DNA of 64,000 bases from Lytechinus pictus (GCF_037042905.1 NC_087250.1:13394001-13458000); one strand, 5' to 3'. Counted from the stretch's first letter, positions 2,689-45,700 are shown. Numbers and translations: made by a program. Notes: generated from the letters alone by a model not told the origin.

Positions 2689-2797
2689 GTAACTCGATAT
2701 TCTGAACGGAATATAAGATCATTGTCATTTAACAAAGTAAACTGCAAGTGGGAGAGTAGTCCCTAAAGTTTGCCGCACTCTACTTTAATATAAACCA

Positions 2798-3908
2798 TAA
2801 AGTCAAAAAGGGGCCTAAGCTTTCGATCCTAGCAGAATCTTCGTCGGAGGCAAAATGACAAACATATAAAGTGGAACAACCATAATATAGACCACAAACA
2901 AGCTACAGCAACACTAGAAACAAGGAGACAAAAGGGGCATTAGTGAGTAGAGAAGACCAATCAGGTTAGTGAAGGGGATGAAAGAAAAGGAGTAGGCAGA
3001 CACAAAGGGAAGTTAGTGTAAGTAAGGCCAAGAGGGATTAAGATAATGAGGCAGGCAACATCAAACAGGATCTGGAACAAAACAGTGATAGAGGGATGAA
3101 TAACTAGAGAATTAGTGAGAGGTGGGTCAAACAGGTTACAAAGAAAGGCTTAATAAACTGGTGCATAAGAGTGGGGGGAAAAAAGAAGAAAAAGAATGGG
3201 GAACAACTGATAATGTGCAAAAGACATATAAGTATATATGATAAAGCATTAAACAAACTAAGAGAAGAAGGTAAGTGTAAATATGTATCTATAAGTGATA
3301 TGTATATAAATATATCCAAAAAAGAAATGTATATGAAAAAATATATAAATATATACACATATGGTGTAACTGATATGGTAATCCGCTAGGTGTGACGGGA
3401 AAAAACATAAGACTATATAGTAGGAAAGAAAAAAAATCTGTATATGTGAAAAAGAGGAAGCAAATTGCCTAAAAAGGTAAAAGCAAATATAGAAGAGAGG
3501 GGGTGTATTATGAAGAAACCATTGTATACATGTAAATAAGCAAATGTGGTAAATCTAAAAGAGGTGAGTGGAGAAAAAACAAATATATATATATATATAT
3601 AATAATTATTATATCGCCTGAATAAGGAAGGAAAAATTGGAGCTGAGCTTGTATGAGATATGGGAGGAAAGTAGAGTAAGAAACTATAATGTAACTATTC
3701 AAAAGAGCTGAGGGGAAAAATTATATGTATATATAAATTGAAAGTGGATAGGAAAGAAAAATCAGTCGTTCCCCTCTTGGATGTTCAGGCCATGAGGTTG
3801 GGTGGTGCGAAGTCGTCTCATCCAGAGCTTCTCCCTGCTAGTACGAATTTGAATAGTATTTTTGGTCATAAGAGAATAGCTCTCAACTAAGTAATGTACA
3901 GTCCTATG
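2798..3908 (-). mobile_element. 5'-truncated Penelope-like element (GIY-YIG C-terminus, long 3' UTR, hammerhead) in a ZCCHC17 intron
   Basis: 13-bp direct repeat TTAATATAAACCA at 2785-2797 and 3909-3921. Minus strand 3845-3762 reads RTSREKLWMRRLRTTQPHGLNIQEGND*, the RE..W...L.T..P.GLN motif of PLE GIY-YIG ends. Hammerhead motif at 2813-2851. Confidence 0.8.
2813..2851 (-). ncRNA. Minimal type I hammerhead ribozyme motif (U4C core variant)
   Basis: Minus strand GCCT-CCGACGA-A-GATTC-tgcta-GGATC-GAAA-GC-TT-AGGC: stem I GCCT/AGGC, stem II, GAAA, palindromic AGCT replacing stem III. Confidence 0.65.
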
Positions 3909-4846
3909 TTAATATAAACCAGATTGACAATTTGATATTTTCGTTTCAATATCTGTGTGGATCTTTCTTTCCTTGTCAAATTTCTTTCAGGCTTTCACCT
4001 GTTTTGTTTTTTATTACCAGCACAGATCCATAATGCCAAATGCACTTGAACAATTTAAGAATGAAGGCACAGGGAATAATTTTGCTTTACAAATTTGAAT
4101 AGTATTTTTGGTCATAAGAGAATAGCTCTCAACTAAGTAATGTACAGTCCTATGTAAATATATGCTATACAATAGAATTTATGCATAGCATGAAAATTAT
4201 TCCCTGAGAGGCATGTTTTTTTTTTTGGGGGGGGGGGTCAAAAATGAAATATTTTCGCCCCAAATTTGGCATTTTACTTTTCGTGAATCTTTGCCATACA
4301 GATAGAAATGTATGAAATCCAGTATTCCATTAAAGTGTGGTCTAAATTTCTAGCTTAGAGTAGGGTTAGATTATCAAAATATCAGCGTTTGATTGAAACA
4401 AACTTTTAGATTAAAAATCAGAGTTCTAGAATCTACTTCTGTGATTTTATTGTACAGTATTAAAGTTAACATTTGTACAATGGTAATTATCATTCACCCA
4501 TATCAGTGCACCATTGAAGTACTGTATGAGGGTTTTTAAATCATTGTTTTAAAAATGTGTACAATACTCTCCAGCAATTGCAAAACCATATCCAAGATAT
4601 TTGGAGAGCATTCCATGATGCAAATGAGGATTTTAAACTGACTATTTGTTATAAGCTATTGAAATCCTTGCATCTGATTGGCTCGGAGGAGATTGCTCAG
4701 TCAGAATCGCTGAGGAGATGCTCTGTGAAGTACTCCACAGGTATTTCCTTGCCAGTTTGATATAAAGAAGAGAAGAAAATCAAAAGACTACAACAATGGA
4801 CAAAAGACAACAAGATTTTCTTTGTAATTTATTCTTTATTTGACAG

Positions 4847-5752
4847 AAAAACAGGAGGGGTTCCTCTCCCAGAGATACCAAGTACAAAGCTACAAGGCAT
4901 CGTGAAGAAAAGGGGAAGAGAGCGAAAAAGAGGACACGCAAGGAGTTCTCTTCTTCAGACCGTTCTAGTAATGAGGAGGAGAGCAATGAAGGAGAGCGTA
5001 GGAATCAGAAGAGGAAGAAAGATAGAAAGAAAGGGAAGAACATGAGGTACACATCAACAGACAGTACTATCTCTGATGAGAGCAGTGAGGAAGAACGTAG
5101 GAATCGGAAGAGGAAGAAAGATAAAAAGAAAATGAAGAAAAAACGGAGAGACACATCAAGTGAAAGCACCGATGAAGAAGAACAGAATCGGAAAAGGAAG
5201 AGAGCTGACGAGAAAAAGAAGAGAAGAGATACATATACGTCATCTGACAGTAGTAGCTCCGACAATGAGAGCAGTGAAGAAGAACGTAGGAATCGGAAAA
5301 GGACGAAAAATAGAAAGAAAAGCAAAAGTGGTGAAAGTGATAAGCACTACATGTATGAGAAAGGCAAGAAACGATCAAGGAGTGAGGATAGTAAGAAAGG
5401 ATATAGGGCTAGTAGAATGAAGGAATCATCAAAAGATAGAAGGGATGATAGAGAGAAGAGACAAAACCATGGAAGCAGTGATGAGATGCGCCACCATCAC
5501 ACGGAGGAAAGGACACATGCACATAGAATTCATGCAAGCGAGAGAAGGAACGACCGATACCAAAGGCCTTTTGATAGACAGAAGGAAAGAACACGCTTGC
5601 ATAGTGGTAATTATCATTCTAGGGGTGGAGAGACAGGCGGCGATCGGCGGAAAGATGGAAGGGATGACGAGTCGTGGAGTAGACACCAGCATAGGCAGAA
5701 GAGAAGAAGCAGAGAACGAAGTGATAAAAGAACGAATGTCGATTCCGCGTGA
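4847..5752 (+). CDS. ZCCHC17: ZCCHC17 terminal exon, long Lys/Arg/Ser/Glu-rich low-complexity tail
   Basis: tttgacag acceptor in phase 0, same frame as ORF 5042..5752, TGA at 5750-5752. Composition matches the basic/serine-rich ZCCHC17 C-terminus. Confidence 0.8.
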   Translation, partial: KNRRGSSPRDTKYKATRHREEKGKRAKKRTRKEFSSSDRSSNEEESNEGERRNQKRKKDRKKGKNMRYTSTDSTISDESSEEERRNRKRKKDKKKMKKKRRDTSSESTDEEEQNRKRKRADEKKKRRDTYTSSDSSSSDNESSEEERRNRKRTKNRKKSKSGESDKHYMYEKGKKRSRSEDSKKGYRASRMKESSKDRRDDREKRQNHGSSDEMRHHHTEERTHAHRIHASERRNDRYQRPFDRQKERTRLHSGNYHSRGGETGGDRRKDGRDDESWSRHQHRQKRRSRERSDKRTNVDSA

Positions 5753-14610: not shown

Positions 14611-17600
14611 TTGAAATCAATCTGTTTTTATTTTTTGATAGAAATCCTAAGATTATTATTTTAATTCTCTTTCTTTGATTACAAATAATATTCATTGAAA
14701 ACTTATAATTTCTAATGTTCAAGCAAAGAAAATCAATATCAAGTCATGTTTACCCTGTGCACAAACCTACCACAGGGCAATTACCCCCGAAACAGGGTTA
14801 TGTTAGGTGTAGATTTTTGGATAGGGGTACAGACTACAGTGTAGTTGTCCGGGGGGGGGGGTAATTGTCCAGGGTGGGGGTGGGGGAGGGGAATTGTCCG
14901 GGGGTGGGGGTGGGGGGTTATCGTCCAGGGGTAGTTGCCCTTGAACCAAAGAAATCATATGCCAATATGTCAAATCAATCTGAGTACTTTAAGATTTAAA
15001 TAAAAAGCTTGTACAATTCCCCATAAGCTATGTATTATAAATGTGCCATGCCCAAAACAAAGAGAATAATAAGATTTCGCAATCTTCTTTTGTCCACAAA
15101 AAGCACTGTTTTTTCATCACAAAGATGACAATAACTTGACTTCTAGATATCGGAATTTGAAAATTCAAACAGTTTTGTGAATCGTAGATATTGAGCCTCA
15201 TTGTGAGCCAATCAAGTATGCTGGAACAGCCTTTCCTAATTTTCACCTGAAGTGCCTAGTCAAGGAGGATGATTGTTCAATCATGTTTCATCATTTGGAA
15301 ACTGGATTCTTTTGGAAGTGGAATATCAATGTTGACTTTTTAAATTAAAATGCACAATCTATAGTTTAATTTTTTCTTTTGTAGAAAAAAAAATTATTTG
15401 GAAACTTTTCAATCATGTTTCATTATTTTGAGACTGGATTTGCTTTTATTTATTTTTGTTTTCACTCTTGTAAGAAAATACATGAAAACTCAGAGGAAAG
15501 AATATTTCATTTCCTGATGGGTCTAAGTCCTGTATTTATGATTTTTCTTTCTGTTTTATTAATTGTATTATTTTTTGGGGGTTTCCTTTTCCTTTTTTTG
15601 TTTTTTCGTTTGGGGTGCAGGTGGGGGTTGTGTTTTAAACTGGAAAATGGGGATGGGATTGGTACAAGTTTTTGTGTCACTTTTGTTTCTCTTGTTTTGA
15701 GTGTTTGGAGCTTTGATGTCTGTTTTTGTTGTTTAGAGCTTTGATATCTGTTTTTTCCTGATTGTTTTTTTGTTTGTTTTGAAAGAAATAGACCACTCTT
15801 TTCCTTTTATTTTTGCTTCAACTAATAATTTGGTGCCTTTCAAGTCTATCCATGGGGAGATTGGTAAATTTGCATTGTTAAGTTCTTTTCCTCAAAATCT
15901 TACTAATTTTTTTGTTTTGTTTCATAATAGATTGGAAGTATGTGTAAAAAATTGTGTACATTTATGTGCATTGATTTTACACTAGAATCTGAATTTATTT
16001 ATTTTTTCTTAAAAAAGAGAGCTCAAACAGGGCCTTTGTAATACAATGTATACAAATTTAAGAAATGCATTGAAAACTAATGGAATATATTAAAGCTTAA
16101 TTTTTATCCTTCTTGATACTTGTAATAAATTGCACATAATGCTACATATATTTTGCACTCAACTGCTCATCCCTCCTAAAAAAATTGTAATCAAATGTCC
16201 ATTGTCTCTAAAATCAAAAGCTACATATATACCTGTATAACAAATTGTTGAAACGATAGAATACATAAGGAATTGGTGAAACAATCAAATACATCAAAAA
16301 ATAGCACACTTGTATTTTTATTTGGTCATACAAAGTACAAAAGGAATGATAATTTTCATATACCCCTGTACATACATGTATACAATACTAAAGTTTAGTA
16401 ATTTATATCAGAAAAACAAGGAAATACATTTGAAATTACAAAAACAATATTTTGAACAAATTCATTTAGGAAATTATCTACATGATGCTGTTTTGATGCC
16501 AACAAAATTATTTAAATTATCTATCATGATCACCTTCATTTGGCAAAAAAAGAGGCGTGTAATTGTGATTTTGCGTAATTTGCATAATTGATTAGAATTA
16601 ATTAGAAGAAATTATTTTACACATACACGTTTGTATTAAGAAGAAAAATTACAAAGTGAAATGATTACACATCAATTGAGCTTTTTTCACCTTTCCATTG
16701 ATACCTAAATTACTTCAAAGGGCTCAAAAGCAAAGAAGTTAGAGCCTGTTGAAGACTTTGGTTCAAAATGGTCACAAAAATCTGTTCTGTACATTCCATT
16801 GACTTTACATTAAGACAATGGCCACAAATTTGGATGAATACATGTATGCGCGACTTAAACTGGAATTACTTTACAATTTCTTGATGAAAATTAGAGTTCT
16901 TGGTATCATTTGAAAGGTCTTTTTAATAAGAGCTTTCAAATGATACCAAATTTATTGATATTTGATGATTTTCATTTTTTTTTGTCACATACCTACATAT
17001 TTATTGTAAAAATCCTACACCGAAACAAGCTTAAAAATAAGAAGCTTATTTTCTTTTCATCCTAATTTCACTCCATATCCATCTTCCTGTTAGCCCCGAA
17101 ATTGGTGATTTAGAGACAACATCGAGTTCCTCACACATATAAATAATTCGCTGCCGATTTCAAAACATCGCATGCGCGAGGGTCAGAGCTCCGCCGGATC
17201 TAGGGGGGCAAAGCCATGAAAGCCGGCCCATGCCTCCACCCCTCCCCTTTTGAGAGGCACAATTAAAATTTGTGATGTAAAAATGCCATTAAAACAGAAG
17301 TGTGCCCCCCCCCCTTTTTAAAGTGAAGACTTTTTTTTTTTGCTTGTATAATTTTTCCTCAGGGAAATGTGCCCCCCCCCCATTTGGAGAATCTTGGATC
17401 CGCCCCTGTTTATATTATATTGGATCGCTCAGAATGGAATACCAGAAATATTACAAGAGTTTGGGAAAATATGTCACAAATCGCATATGAGTGGAATATT
17501 GGCTCTAACGAGTGGAATATTTCTGGTATTTCATGAAATATAGCCATCCAATAAAATTATTATCATCTATCGAACCCCTCCCCCCCCCCAAAAAAAAAAG

Positions 17601-41933: not shown

Positions 41934-42130
41934 CTTTTATGACCCCGGACGAGGGCATTCCAAGCGCTTGTTCCCAGTGGATCGATGTGGATCCCTGTTC
42001 CAGAGCGCTCCGGGCCCATAACGAACCATCGATAAGGTGGACGCTTCTCGTCACCGGCAAACTGGAAGAGATCGTCTTGAAAGAAGTGCGGCACAACGTA
42101 GTCTTCCAGCAACTTCTTACGCTTCGGATG
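41934..42130 (-). CDS. JMJD6: JMJD6 exon 4 (HxD motif)
   Basis: ccccag|CAT ... AG|gtaaat; [11 protein letters not shown]...[32 protein letters not shown]. Confidence 0.96.
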
Positions 42131-42176
42131 CTGGGGAAAATGATAAGAATGTATATCAATGTTACATACTTTATCG

Positions 42177-42541
42177 CCGACCCACGCACAGAGCGCCACC
42201 TACGACGTCAGCCCGCCGTGACCGCCGGCCCAGCGCTTTCCCCCACGTCCGCACGCACGCCGAGTGAACACTCACTCCTGAAGACGGACAGTCAACCTGT
42301 CCGAAACGTCGAGTCTCTACTCCTCATCATCTCTACTCGCCGACTCAAGCCAGCATCTCCTCATCAGCTCTACTACTCAACTCATCAAACTTTCCTGGTT
42401 TACAGTCCTTTTCAGGACTACTTTCAAGAAAGAATACTCTACTCTCAAATCTCCACTTTCTCGCCTATCCATTTCTTCTCTTCTTCTATCCACTGTTTCT
42501 ATAACACTCCACATGGTGTACCGTAAACCACATCAGCGATT
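42177..42541 (+). mobile_element. 365-bp non-coding retroelement with a hammerhead ribozyme (retrozyme / Penelope pLTR-like)
   Basis: 11-bp direct repeat ATACTTTATCG at 42166-42176 and 42542-42552; GC-rich insert in an AT-rich intron; canonical hammerhead core inside. Confidence 0.8.
42274..42314 (+). ncRNA. Minimal type I hammerhead ribozyme
   Basis: ACTC-CTGAAGA-C-GGACAG-tcaac-CTGTCC-GAAA-CG-TC-GAGT: stem I, CUGANGA, 6-bp stem II, GAAA, palindromic ACGT, GUC cleavage triplet. Confidence 0.85.
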
Positions 42542-43264
42542 ATACTTTATCGTGTCGAAAGTTCATTGGTTTTGTTGGGAAATAGAATGTAAATTAAGAT
42601 TTATTCCATTTAATTCATTGGAAGTTCAATGTTATGATGACAAAGGACAATCTTTTTCATAAAGGGTTCTGAAAAGCTGGTTTCATTCAGGATTATTACT
42701 AAGATTTGCAAAGTGAGGTTATTTTAAAACAAAGGTCTGAAGTGACTCAAGTGAGATATGACATACCGTAGTCTTCAAGTAGCTTATTTGCTTCAGAATG
42801 TAATTTCCTCCTGCAAAAGATGTATCCACATTGTTATACACCTAAATCGGGGTGCCTGTTACAAAAAAAGGTTGCAATGAAACACAGCTCTAAAAATCAA
42901 AGGATGTTTGATTTTCGACCAATCATTAGTGTGTTTGGGGACTTACACTAGAATAATTTTAAGAGACCCTATTAAAAGCAACTTATTCTGCAATGGGCCC
43001 TATGTGTAGTAAGTGGGTACCTCCCGTTTTTGGGGGGGCTACTTTTTACCATACAATGCCTCAATCTGTAACGTTGGAAAAGCATTAATATTGCAGTGAA
43101 TGGAGTTTTCTGGGGCTCTGGTTATTTCCCACGGCTCTTATGAGCACGTCAGGGTGAAAACGCCCTGAGCCCAGTGCTATTTTTCTCCTTGGTGTCGCAG
43201 ATAAAAATGGACATTTGCAACAGTTTCAGTCATCATACAAAAACTTATTTCTCCCTATTGATTG

Positions 43265-43871: not shown

Positions 43872-45700
43872 CTGCAATAGTAAAGTGACGGTTGAGAATT
43901 TTAAGTTTCTGATACCGCTTTCAGTAACTCGCTGATCAAATTTTGAGTATATAAATGGCGCGGGCTACTTCTGGCAAGGGCTATTTTGACGCTGCTTTTA
44001 TCAGCGCCAGACCGGCACCAGGCCCGCATGCACAAGTCTTTTAATGGCCGATCGTAAAAGTAGCGCCGGGTCTTCCATGGTTACTGAAGGCAATGGTGCG
44101 GACTATTTTTAGCGAGGGGCTGGTGTGGAGAAAAAAGAATCATAAGAAAGATACTGGAACAGTATCAAACCACCGTGTCTTCCTGATTCTTGTAAATTGA
44201 ACATTTTACTCGAGCAGTATGAATTTATAAAATAAATGTCAGGCTTGTCTTGCCTACTGTGCAGGCAAGACCAAAACGGGACAGGATTGATTTTCGAACC
44301 TTCGACCTCTTGCAATATTGGTAATGACAATCCCAACAAACCAGCAGAGGCAATTTGGATTAATCAATCACTCATCAGGGTCCCATGACACAAAGGTTAG
44401 CGATTACTCGGACATTTGATTTTCACGATTGATTATACATTGTAGTCAATGGAATCAATCATAGAAAAATGTTCTACGATCATTGCTATAAAGCTTTGTG
44501 TTACGGGCCCCTGGAGTACTAGGTTCACTCCTCAGCTGCTTGATACTAAAATTCATCGACTCAGCGTTGCATCACAATGAGCAAAACAGACAAAACATCC
44601 AATGCCGGCCGCACAGAAACATTTTTAGCGCTAACAGAGCATCTACAGTAGGTCCAGTCAATCACAGTCATATTCATTGACCTGTATTGACAAATGTTCA
44701 TCAAAGTTGTAAATAATGCAATATCGTAACATGAGGCATCGATGGGGCATTACCAGTTGTACATGTTATAAGGCCTCTATTAATATGCATTGTTGCCGCT
44801 AAACAATGCTTCCGTTCAGTCAGTACAGAGTCTTTCATCAACCACAAATATGGAAAGCCAGCAATGTCAACATCTAAAATGCAATCGTTCAAAATATTTT
44901 CCACAAGTAATATATTCATCGTTTTCTTGAAAATTCAGTGTGCTTCTCTTTCCTTAGTGCAAATTTCCTGTTGAAAAAATTATGGCATGGATGGATTTTC
45001 ATATAGTTGAGGTTCATCGGATCAATGGCAACTCTTTGTAAGACGGCCCGTCTTGCAAAAAAATGCAATTGATTCAATCAACCACAACAATAGAAAGCCA
45101 GCAACGTCAACATCTAAGATACATGTTTGTACAAAATACTTTCTAGATACGATGTACATGTATATTCATACAGTCAGTATATTCTTGACAATTCAGTATG
45201 CTTCTCTTTGTTTTCAAAGGACATTGTGCAAATTTCCTAATGTTAAAATTTTGACATTGATGGATTTCCATATATACTTGAGGTTGATTGGATCAATCGC
45301 AACTCTTTGTAAGAAAACCACGGTTGAGTCCATGGTTTTAGCGCGTATCGGGCGCGTGTTTAAAACATGTCCAATGCCGATGCGCGCATTTGTCACAGTG
45401 CGCCAAATTGACGCCTGTTACCATGGTTAGATACGCTATTTTATTCATGAGTCCACTGTTTGAAGAGTGGACTCATGAATAAAAACAGTGGACTCATGAA
45501 TAAAAAGGCGTATTTAACCATGGTAACAGGCGTCAATTTGGCGCACTGTGACAAATGCGCGCATCAGCATTGGACATGTTTTCTATACGCGCCCGATACG
45601 CGCTAAATCAAGCGTAATTTATACAGGAAATCTGCATAAACCATGGACTCAACCGTGGGTTTTCAAAACCGCCTTTGTGAATTCGGGCCAAAGAGATGAT

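Follow-up and report, generated by a model that had tools for sequence, protein, structure and literature searches.

A 365-bp insert in an intron of JMJD6 (positions 42177-42541 of the 64-kb stretch of Lytechinus pictus DNA that was analysed as a whole, here called the window) is very probably a dead-on-arrival, 5'-truncated copy of an autonomous and recently active Penelope-like element (PLE). The homology of the insert to a repeat family, the truncation pattern of that family, the target-site duplications (TSDs), the RT and endonuclease domains of a full-length relative, and both the anatomy and the conservation of a hammerhead motif are direct observations. The features to which the text refers, with the basis on which each was placed, are:

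41934-42130, minus strand: JMJD6 exon, about residues 140-205 of the human protein (translation match and RNA)
42166-42176, no strand assigned: left TSD copy, ATACTTTATCG, 11 bp (read directly)
42177-42541, plus strand: probable 5'-truncated PLE copy, equivalent to unit 2760-3158 of the 3158-bp L031 unit (family alignment)
42274-42314, plus strand: minimal type I hammerhead motif (sequence read, descriptor and features given in PMC4209133)
42404-42419, plus strand: hairpin AGTCCT-TTTC-AGGACT, kept in both PLE families of the genome
42510-42541, plus strand: 3' terminal block, of which CACATGGTGTACCGTAAACC at 42510-42529 is largely common to the second PLE family
42542-42552, no strand assigned: right TSD copy, ATACTTTATCG, 11 bp (read directly)

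The insert and its site in JMJD6

Translation of the exon next to the insert (minus strand) matches residues 140-205 of JMJD6 in the PDB (E = 1.4e-36), which confirms the gene neighbourhood given by an earlier, sequence-only reading of this DNA. The splice signals, read from the sequence, are an AG acceptor at 42131-42132 and a GT donor at 41933-41932. An RNA contig from the same species label (X1 record 1) contains 41934-42132 as an internal block, and raw stranded reads over JMJD6 (X21) have first mates on the plus strand only, which fits a minus-strand gene. Since the exon lies on the minus strand with its AG at 42131-42132, the insert is intronic and antisense to JMJD6; with the motif on the plus strand, the ribozyme is likewise antisense to the gene, as the sequence-only reading had it. 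That reading also placed the left TSD about 35 bp from the exon boundary, and its start is indeed 35 nt from the exon. The insertion point is just 45 nt upstream of the JMJD6 acceptor (window 42131-42176), and a UAAC, a possible branch point, is left between insert and acceptor. Even with the insert in place, splicing of this exon is normal in RNA from the same species label, and for this reason we regard the insert as harmless.

The 11-bp TSD noted earlier can be read on both sides of the insert, and its two copies are the exact borders of repeat-family homology in the alignment to the 3158-bp unit, so that the description of a retrotransposed, TSD-flanked insert stands. At the 5' junction there is a 2-nt microhomology, in which the last CG of the left TSD belongs to the element too (unit ...ACCG/CCGACC). 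Between the TSDs, the left third of the 365 bp is GC-rich and the rest is CT-rich. The copy comprises non-coding 3' region (part of the pLTR) in its tail-less form, and ends ...CAGCGA(TT), the upstream one of the family's two alternative 3' ends. An inverted 5'-truncated arm, of the type described below for other copies, was not found at the window copy.

Three deletions of 19, 2 and 11 bp make the window copy 365 bp long as against about 397 bp. All other aligned copies have the deleted bases, and each deletion is flanked by short direct repeats (CGCACGCC, TC, CTCAA). The junctions of the 19-bp and 11-bp deletions each have a single match in the 812-Mb assembly (≤2 mismatches), namely the window itself. 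With gaps ignored, identity to other copies ranges from 94 to 98.6%; the 98.6% identity to a full-length copy (360 of 365 positions against L002) agrees with the earlier description of the insert as young. A putative role for the hairpin at 42404-42419 is that of an RNA element in the 3' region of the PLE, unconnected with histones. Its score against the Rfam Histone3 model (15.9 bits, E = 0.23, with a gathering score of 34) is far below threshold, and this match was dismissed as chance.

The right junction is crossed without difference by an RNA contig from the same species label (X1 record 8, 42513-42850), and the insert is therefore present in that species label. An empty site, one of the checks proposed with the sequence-only reading, is suggested by X11 record 14, a 167-nt contig of depth 30.1 from a second species label, which lies on 42542-42647 from its 62nd letter. 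A left piece consisting of 42105-42165 has exactly 61 letters and fits this contig, and at 42142 there is a variant of equal depth, 24 letters from an end. The contig is best read as joining 42165 to 42542, an empty site with a single TSD copy; the joint 42165>42542 is absent among the 15 of 34 joints that are listed, and the reading draws on these depths and distances.

The Penelope-like family

With the 365 bp as query, the 812-Mb assembly from which the window comes gave 1152 first-look candidates; 40 of these were scored, and the listing comprised 50 matches. Among the matches listed, at least 26 other places cover nearly the whole query, and dispersed genomic copies, another check proposed with the earlier reading, are thus many. 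One locus (L031) has direct repeats at 1843-2406 and 5001-5564 that are 97-98% alike and spaced 3158 bp apart; the reference unit against which all loci were compared is taken from it (L031:2407-5564, 3158 bp). A 675-codon frame with one in-frame stop lies between the repeats (3040-5064), its second part matching GIY-YIG over the cut-off (E = 1.1e-5, 26.1 bits, cut-off 22.6) and RVT_1 just below the Pfam cut-off (E = 4.2e-6, 27.1 bits, cut-off 29.6). A frame with RT and GIY-YIG domains between repeats spaced 3158 bp constitutes the canonical architecture of an endonuclease-positive PLE. The L031 unit has its 3' end in common with the insert, and an autonomous PLE sharing the end, which had also been proposed as a check, is thereby identified; the PLE connection drawn from the sequence was correct, with the insert being part of the RT/GIY-YIG PLE itself. 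The nearest neighbours of the L031 protein in the protein atlas are animal HTH_animal/GIY-YIG/RVT_1 clusters. These are generic animal PLE-like clusters only, and point to no clade.

All compared copies have a common 3' end, stopping at unit 3156-3158 or continuing into a tail of 34-37 nt that repeats the opening 34-37 nt of the unit. Twenty-one of the 39 rows carry this tail and 18 lack it (four rows are duplicates, from two places). For the 5' end, at least 20 different positions were found, at unit 1408, 1548, 1599, 1684, 1821, 1875, 1965, 1987, 2130, 2230, 2368, 2372, 2595, 2644, 2703, 2730, 2760 (the window copy), 2779, 2789 and 2867-2879; six further copies in this comparison run past the edges of the fetched loci. 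A shared 3' end combined with differing 5' ends is the pattern of 5' truncation. Inverted 5'-truncated arms adjoin copies L006, L012, L015, L017, L018, L023, L026 and L050-L057, and three other simple truncated copies have TSDs of 12, 9 and 7 bp (L024, L009 and L022, respectively). In the inverted pairs L006, L012, L017, L018, L021, L023 and L027, one arm has the tail and the other is without it.

The assembly also contains a second PLE family (L035-L046), whose hammerhead/flank junction has 86 matches (reversed control, 0). The two families have a near-identical hammerhead block, a common hairpin, the 3' terminal block and a similar tail, and are diverged in the rest of the pLTR. A truncated second-family copy (L047, G000:C3:26039562-26042592) has the hammerhead as its start, with ...CTCCCAG before it. 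In the RNA data (X21), 47 reads have a third upstream flank before 42274; a tandem retrozyme behind this flank was considered and rejected, given that the junction occurs once in the genome, at L047, and represents one expressed copy. L047 is probably part of an expressed host transcript. About two thirds of the first mates of element RNA are on the plus strand (X21), mostly antisense to the element on the assumption of a standard stranded library, and this plus-strand excess is taken to come from copies inside host transcripts. Two other stretches of the window, 16996-17183 and 44373-44504, resemble the flanks of locus L035 (75-94% identity) and presumably represent further interspersed repeats that have no relation to the PLE.

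The genome matches of two 27-mers (own genome, ≤2 mismatches, controls 0) bear on how the window copy came about: one upstream of the motif has 52 matches and one 15 nt past the predicted cut has 501. It is conceivable that a partial-tandem PLE insertion was reduced, through recombination between its repeats, to unit 2760-3158 between the original TSDs, leaving a solo pLTR. Partial-tandem insertions do exist here (L031), and the product would be the same in sequence as that of a directly truncated insertion. Against this, the two 27-mer counts, after and before the hammerhead, indicate that ORF-less short copies are the great majority; direct truncation is then one event with a common outcome, and nothing in the window copy calls for a second event. 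We consider such a recombinational origin improbable.

The sequence-only reading had instead proposed a discrete, non-autonomous, retrozyme-like family, mobilised in trans by a PLE. The fragment is non-coding and has a hammerhead, PLE-derived non-autonomous retrozymes are reported in animals (bioRxiv 10.64898/2026.07.22.740005), and the commonest form of the family is a short unit starting at the hammerhead, all of which would suit this proposal. It is countered by features that are private to the window copy. Its 5' end is unshared by any examined copy and lies 97 nt upstream of the hammerhead (118 nt in unit coordinates, the copy being without 21 nt of this stretch), and both of the deletion junctions searched for are unique in the assembly. 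Tandem copies, which had been named as a further check, are lacking in the 64-kb window, where there is one family copy with one motif. With regard to circular RNA, no joint that goes back over the element occurs among the 15 of 34 joints listed (6% of the raw run). Unique deletion junctions together with a single copy and a single motif indicate a one-off truncation product and no propagating 365-bp element. A retrozyme family is thus largely refuted as the source of the window copy, very improbable in our estimate, and gives way to a 5'-truncated PLE copy.

For a truncated PLE copy, the steps of insertion can be proposed as follows, in line with published accounts of PLEs; each enzymatic step, and any ribozyme activity, we infer. 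A long PLE RNA would be bound by the element's RT/GIY-YIG protein, whose endonuclease would make its cut at an AT-rich position within the JMJD6 intron. Reverse transcription would begin at the upstream one of two internal start sites, giving a copy without the tail, and synthesis would stop or switch after about 400 nt, at unit 2760, on the 2-nt microhomology. Cuts staggered by 11 bp would produce the TSD, and the three small deletions, of slippage type, could have arisen during or after insertion. The hammerhead would have come along as a passenger, and in the active element it is a conserved part of the pLTR.

The hammerhead motif and where family copies begin

The motif (ACTC CTGAAGA C GGACAG TCAAC CTGTCC GAAA CGTC GAGT) has the intact CTGAAGA/GAAA core that the sequence-only reading reported for it, with both core boxes and the cleavage triplet (CTGAAGA, GAAA, GTC) within 42278-42310. 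Helix I is 4 bp (ACTC/GAGT), and helix II consists of 6 Watson-Crick bp (GGACAG/CTGTCC) with the loop TCAAC. C42285 is unpaired after A9, and G42286 pairs with C42302 (G10.1-C11.1). A palindromic ACGT replaces helix III, and the GUC triplet ends at 42310, with the cut predicted after C42310. Its earlier classification as a minimal type I hammerhead, in need of a dimer, is in line with the published PLE min-HHR.

Rfam hammerhead models (type I/III, HH9, HH10, II) gave no match at the gathering score in the whole window, and at E ≤ 10 the stretch 42100-42620 has six weak matches, none of them to a hammerhead family, so that this check, also proposed with the sequence-only reading, came out negative. 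The six (Histone3, snoRNAs and bacterial sRNAs) are far below gathering scores and were taken as chance. The lack of an Rfam match is expected because the motif is without helix III, and membership in the hammerhead family is accordingly a matter of reading it against the published descriptor. A descriptor written after the motif had been seen (CTGANGA and GAAA, between them a helix II of 4-8 bp with a G10.1-C11.1 pair and, optionally, a bulge, plus palindromic 15.2-16.2, UH and a 4-bp helix I) has one match in the 64-kb window, counting both strands, and no match in 300 first-order Markov sequences as long as the window.

Among the 39 rows, 33 cover the motif: six have the 41 nt of the window, 20 differ only by T>C at 42300, and seven have one other change (G8>A, G12>A and G10.1>A are included, in one row each). 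T>C at 42300 turns the third pair of helix II into A.C. The 33-nt core has 211 exact matches in the genome (reversed control, 0), and at position 42300 the first 100 listed of these have C in 91 and T in 9. The second family, too, has C at this position. Since most copies have the A.C mismatch, helix II is not strictly kept; the perfect helix II of the window is, judged from these alignments, the less common form and belongs to the youngest subfamily. Between the two PLE families, the motif is the best-conserved block, 44 nt that are near-identical and set between flanks that are both diverged by many substitutions and indels. This comparison indicates that the motif is under selection in the PLE.

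Resemblance by chance, with no ribozyme meaning, would agree with the lack of an Rfam hammerhead match, the short helix I (4 bp), the helix II mismatch in most copies and the lack of RNA ends at the predicted cut. The last of these is a weak null: no site at which many molecules begin or end, and so no pile of ends at 42310/42311, was reported in the X21 data (about 6% of the run, depth about 130 over the motif), with all family copies pooled and with 5'-OH ends disfavoured by the libraries. A chance origin is opposed by the failure of the descriptor to match any of the 300 random 64-kb sequences, by the near-invariance of the block between two PLE families with diverged flanks, and by six structural features that agree with the published PLE min-HHR (PMC4209133), and we regard it as extremely improbable. 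Minimum-energy folds (41-nt, 62-nt and dimer) have helix I and a 7-bp helix II that takes in G12, and are neutral on the hammerhead. As for activity of a genuine min-HHR, the type is thought to cleave only through pairing of the ACGU palindromes of two motifs, or with protein help; the hammerhead in this lone, intronic, antisense copy most likely does nothing.

From the 27-mer counts given above, about 90% of family copies begin at or just past the hammerhead. DNA contigs from the second species label show an increase in summed word depth of about 15- to 26-fold from 42224-42257 to 42292-42325. We sampled 20 places with the downstream 27-mer in genome order (L058-L077; 31 arms), leaving out three already-known places, the head-to-head pairs L050 and L055 and the long copy L010, which does extend upstream of the motif. 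None of the 31 arms reaches upstream of unit 2875. Nearly half (14) start at unit 2875-2885, where helix I begins at 2878 (window equivalent 42271-42281); three start at 2894-2905, nine at 2912-2929 (three of them at 2912, 2913 and 2915) and five further downstream. Eight further loci (L050-L057) are head-to-head palindromes in which both arms start (A)CTCCTGAAGA, with 0-20 nt of filler.

We infer from these starts that the RNA copied most often begins, at its 5' end, with the first bases of the hammerhead. The hot spot may mark either the start of transcription or a point at which the RT is strongly stopped. The Inr consensus is YYANWYY, and TCACTCC at the start of the motif fits it. A tentative proposal, which we hold possible but rather doubtful, is that the abundant form of the family is a unit of about 280-320 bp, running from within the first few bases of helix I to the 3' end and derived from short pLTR RNAs that start at the Inr-like TCA(+1)CTCC. 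If this is true, short RNAs with the ribozyme at their 5' end, and not the ORF-bearing RNA, would be the main PLE templates, and would amount to a natural, monomeric, retrozyme-like by-product that marks PLE transcript starts. A cleaved RNA would start at unit 2915, and BLAST ends are good to a few bases; the cluster of arm starts at the cut site is no bigger than a uniform spread over that stretch would give. The smaller group starting at or just past the predicted cut could be a trace of cleavage in vivo.

The window insert itself matters little, being one more truncated PLE fragment with a known minimal hammerhead, harmless in its intron. It is of use for annotation, since it reveals a PLE family with RT and GIY-YIG domains, recently active and several hundred copies strong, in this genome. 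Hammerhead-like matches here are accordingly best annotated as debris of PLEs, not as ribozyme genes in their own right. The copy-start hot spot bears on the question of what the PLE hammerhead does.

Comparison with known systems

Canonical endonuclease-positive PLEs (the clades Penelope/Poseidon, Neptune and Nematis) were reportedly treated by Evgen'ev and Arkhipova in 2005. Craig et al. 2021 (PMC8557442) name 5' truncation, partial tandems, adjacent inverted copies and a 30-40-bp tail as PLE hallmarks, and the family described here resembles canonical PLEs as presented there in having one frame with RT followed by a C-terminal GIY-YIG. The likeness extends to partial-tandem pLTRs, heavy 5' truncation, inverted truncated neighbours and an optional tail of 34-37 nt, as well as to a pLTR hammerhead, AT-rich targets and short TSDs; the window has only the last 365 bp of such an element. 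Inspected by eye, the L031 frame shows no CX2-5CxxC linker upstream of its GIY-YIG motif. Under the criterion given in PMC8557442, this would point to Penelope/Poseidon, as an assignment made by eye and not by phylogeny.

In the Poseidon element PAc of Anolis carolinensis (Frangieh et al. 2024, PMC11167929), two RT start sites explain the optional tail and targets are AT-rich/ATT. The family likewise has two alternative 3' ends, set apart by a 30-40-nt tail, and AT-rich/ATT target sites. The PAc hammerhead is inactive alone, and RNA-seq is without ends at its cut site (PMC11167929), as is the RNA here at the predicted cut. The PAc hammerhead overlaps the start of the ORF; unlike it, the hammerhead here is about 280 nt before the 3' end (281 in the unit, 268 in the copy), in the pLTR and upstream of the ORF of the next unit.

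For the metazoan PLE min-HHR, Cervera and De la Pena 2014 (PMC4209133) describe the core boxes, with one base placed between 9 and 10.1 and with G10.1-C11.1 conserved, a helix I of 4-5 bp, a long helix II, palindromic 15.2-16.2 and little or no helix III. The window motif is like it in every structural point; only the sequence differs, being that of this genome's own family, and the likeness is known here from sequence. According to the same paper, min-HHRs sit in pLTRs; most are single and probably belong to truncated PLEs, and some form close pairs with one motif on each strand, while in vitro single min-HHRs are uncleaved and dimers cleave weakly. Such motifs being on record in this form, the suggestion of a possibly undescribed family is not supported for this copy: elements of this kind are well known from the literature, and it is the particular family alone that may be uncatalogued.

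Like animal non-LTR retrozymes, the window copy is non-coding, related to a PLE pLTR and provided with a type I hammerhead. Those retrozymes are tandem monomers with a hammerhead in each, whereas the window has one copy with one motif; unlike them, too, the window copy appears to be the truncation product of an autonomous element, marked by deletions of its own.
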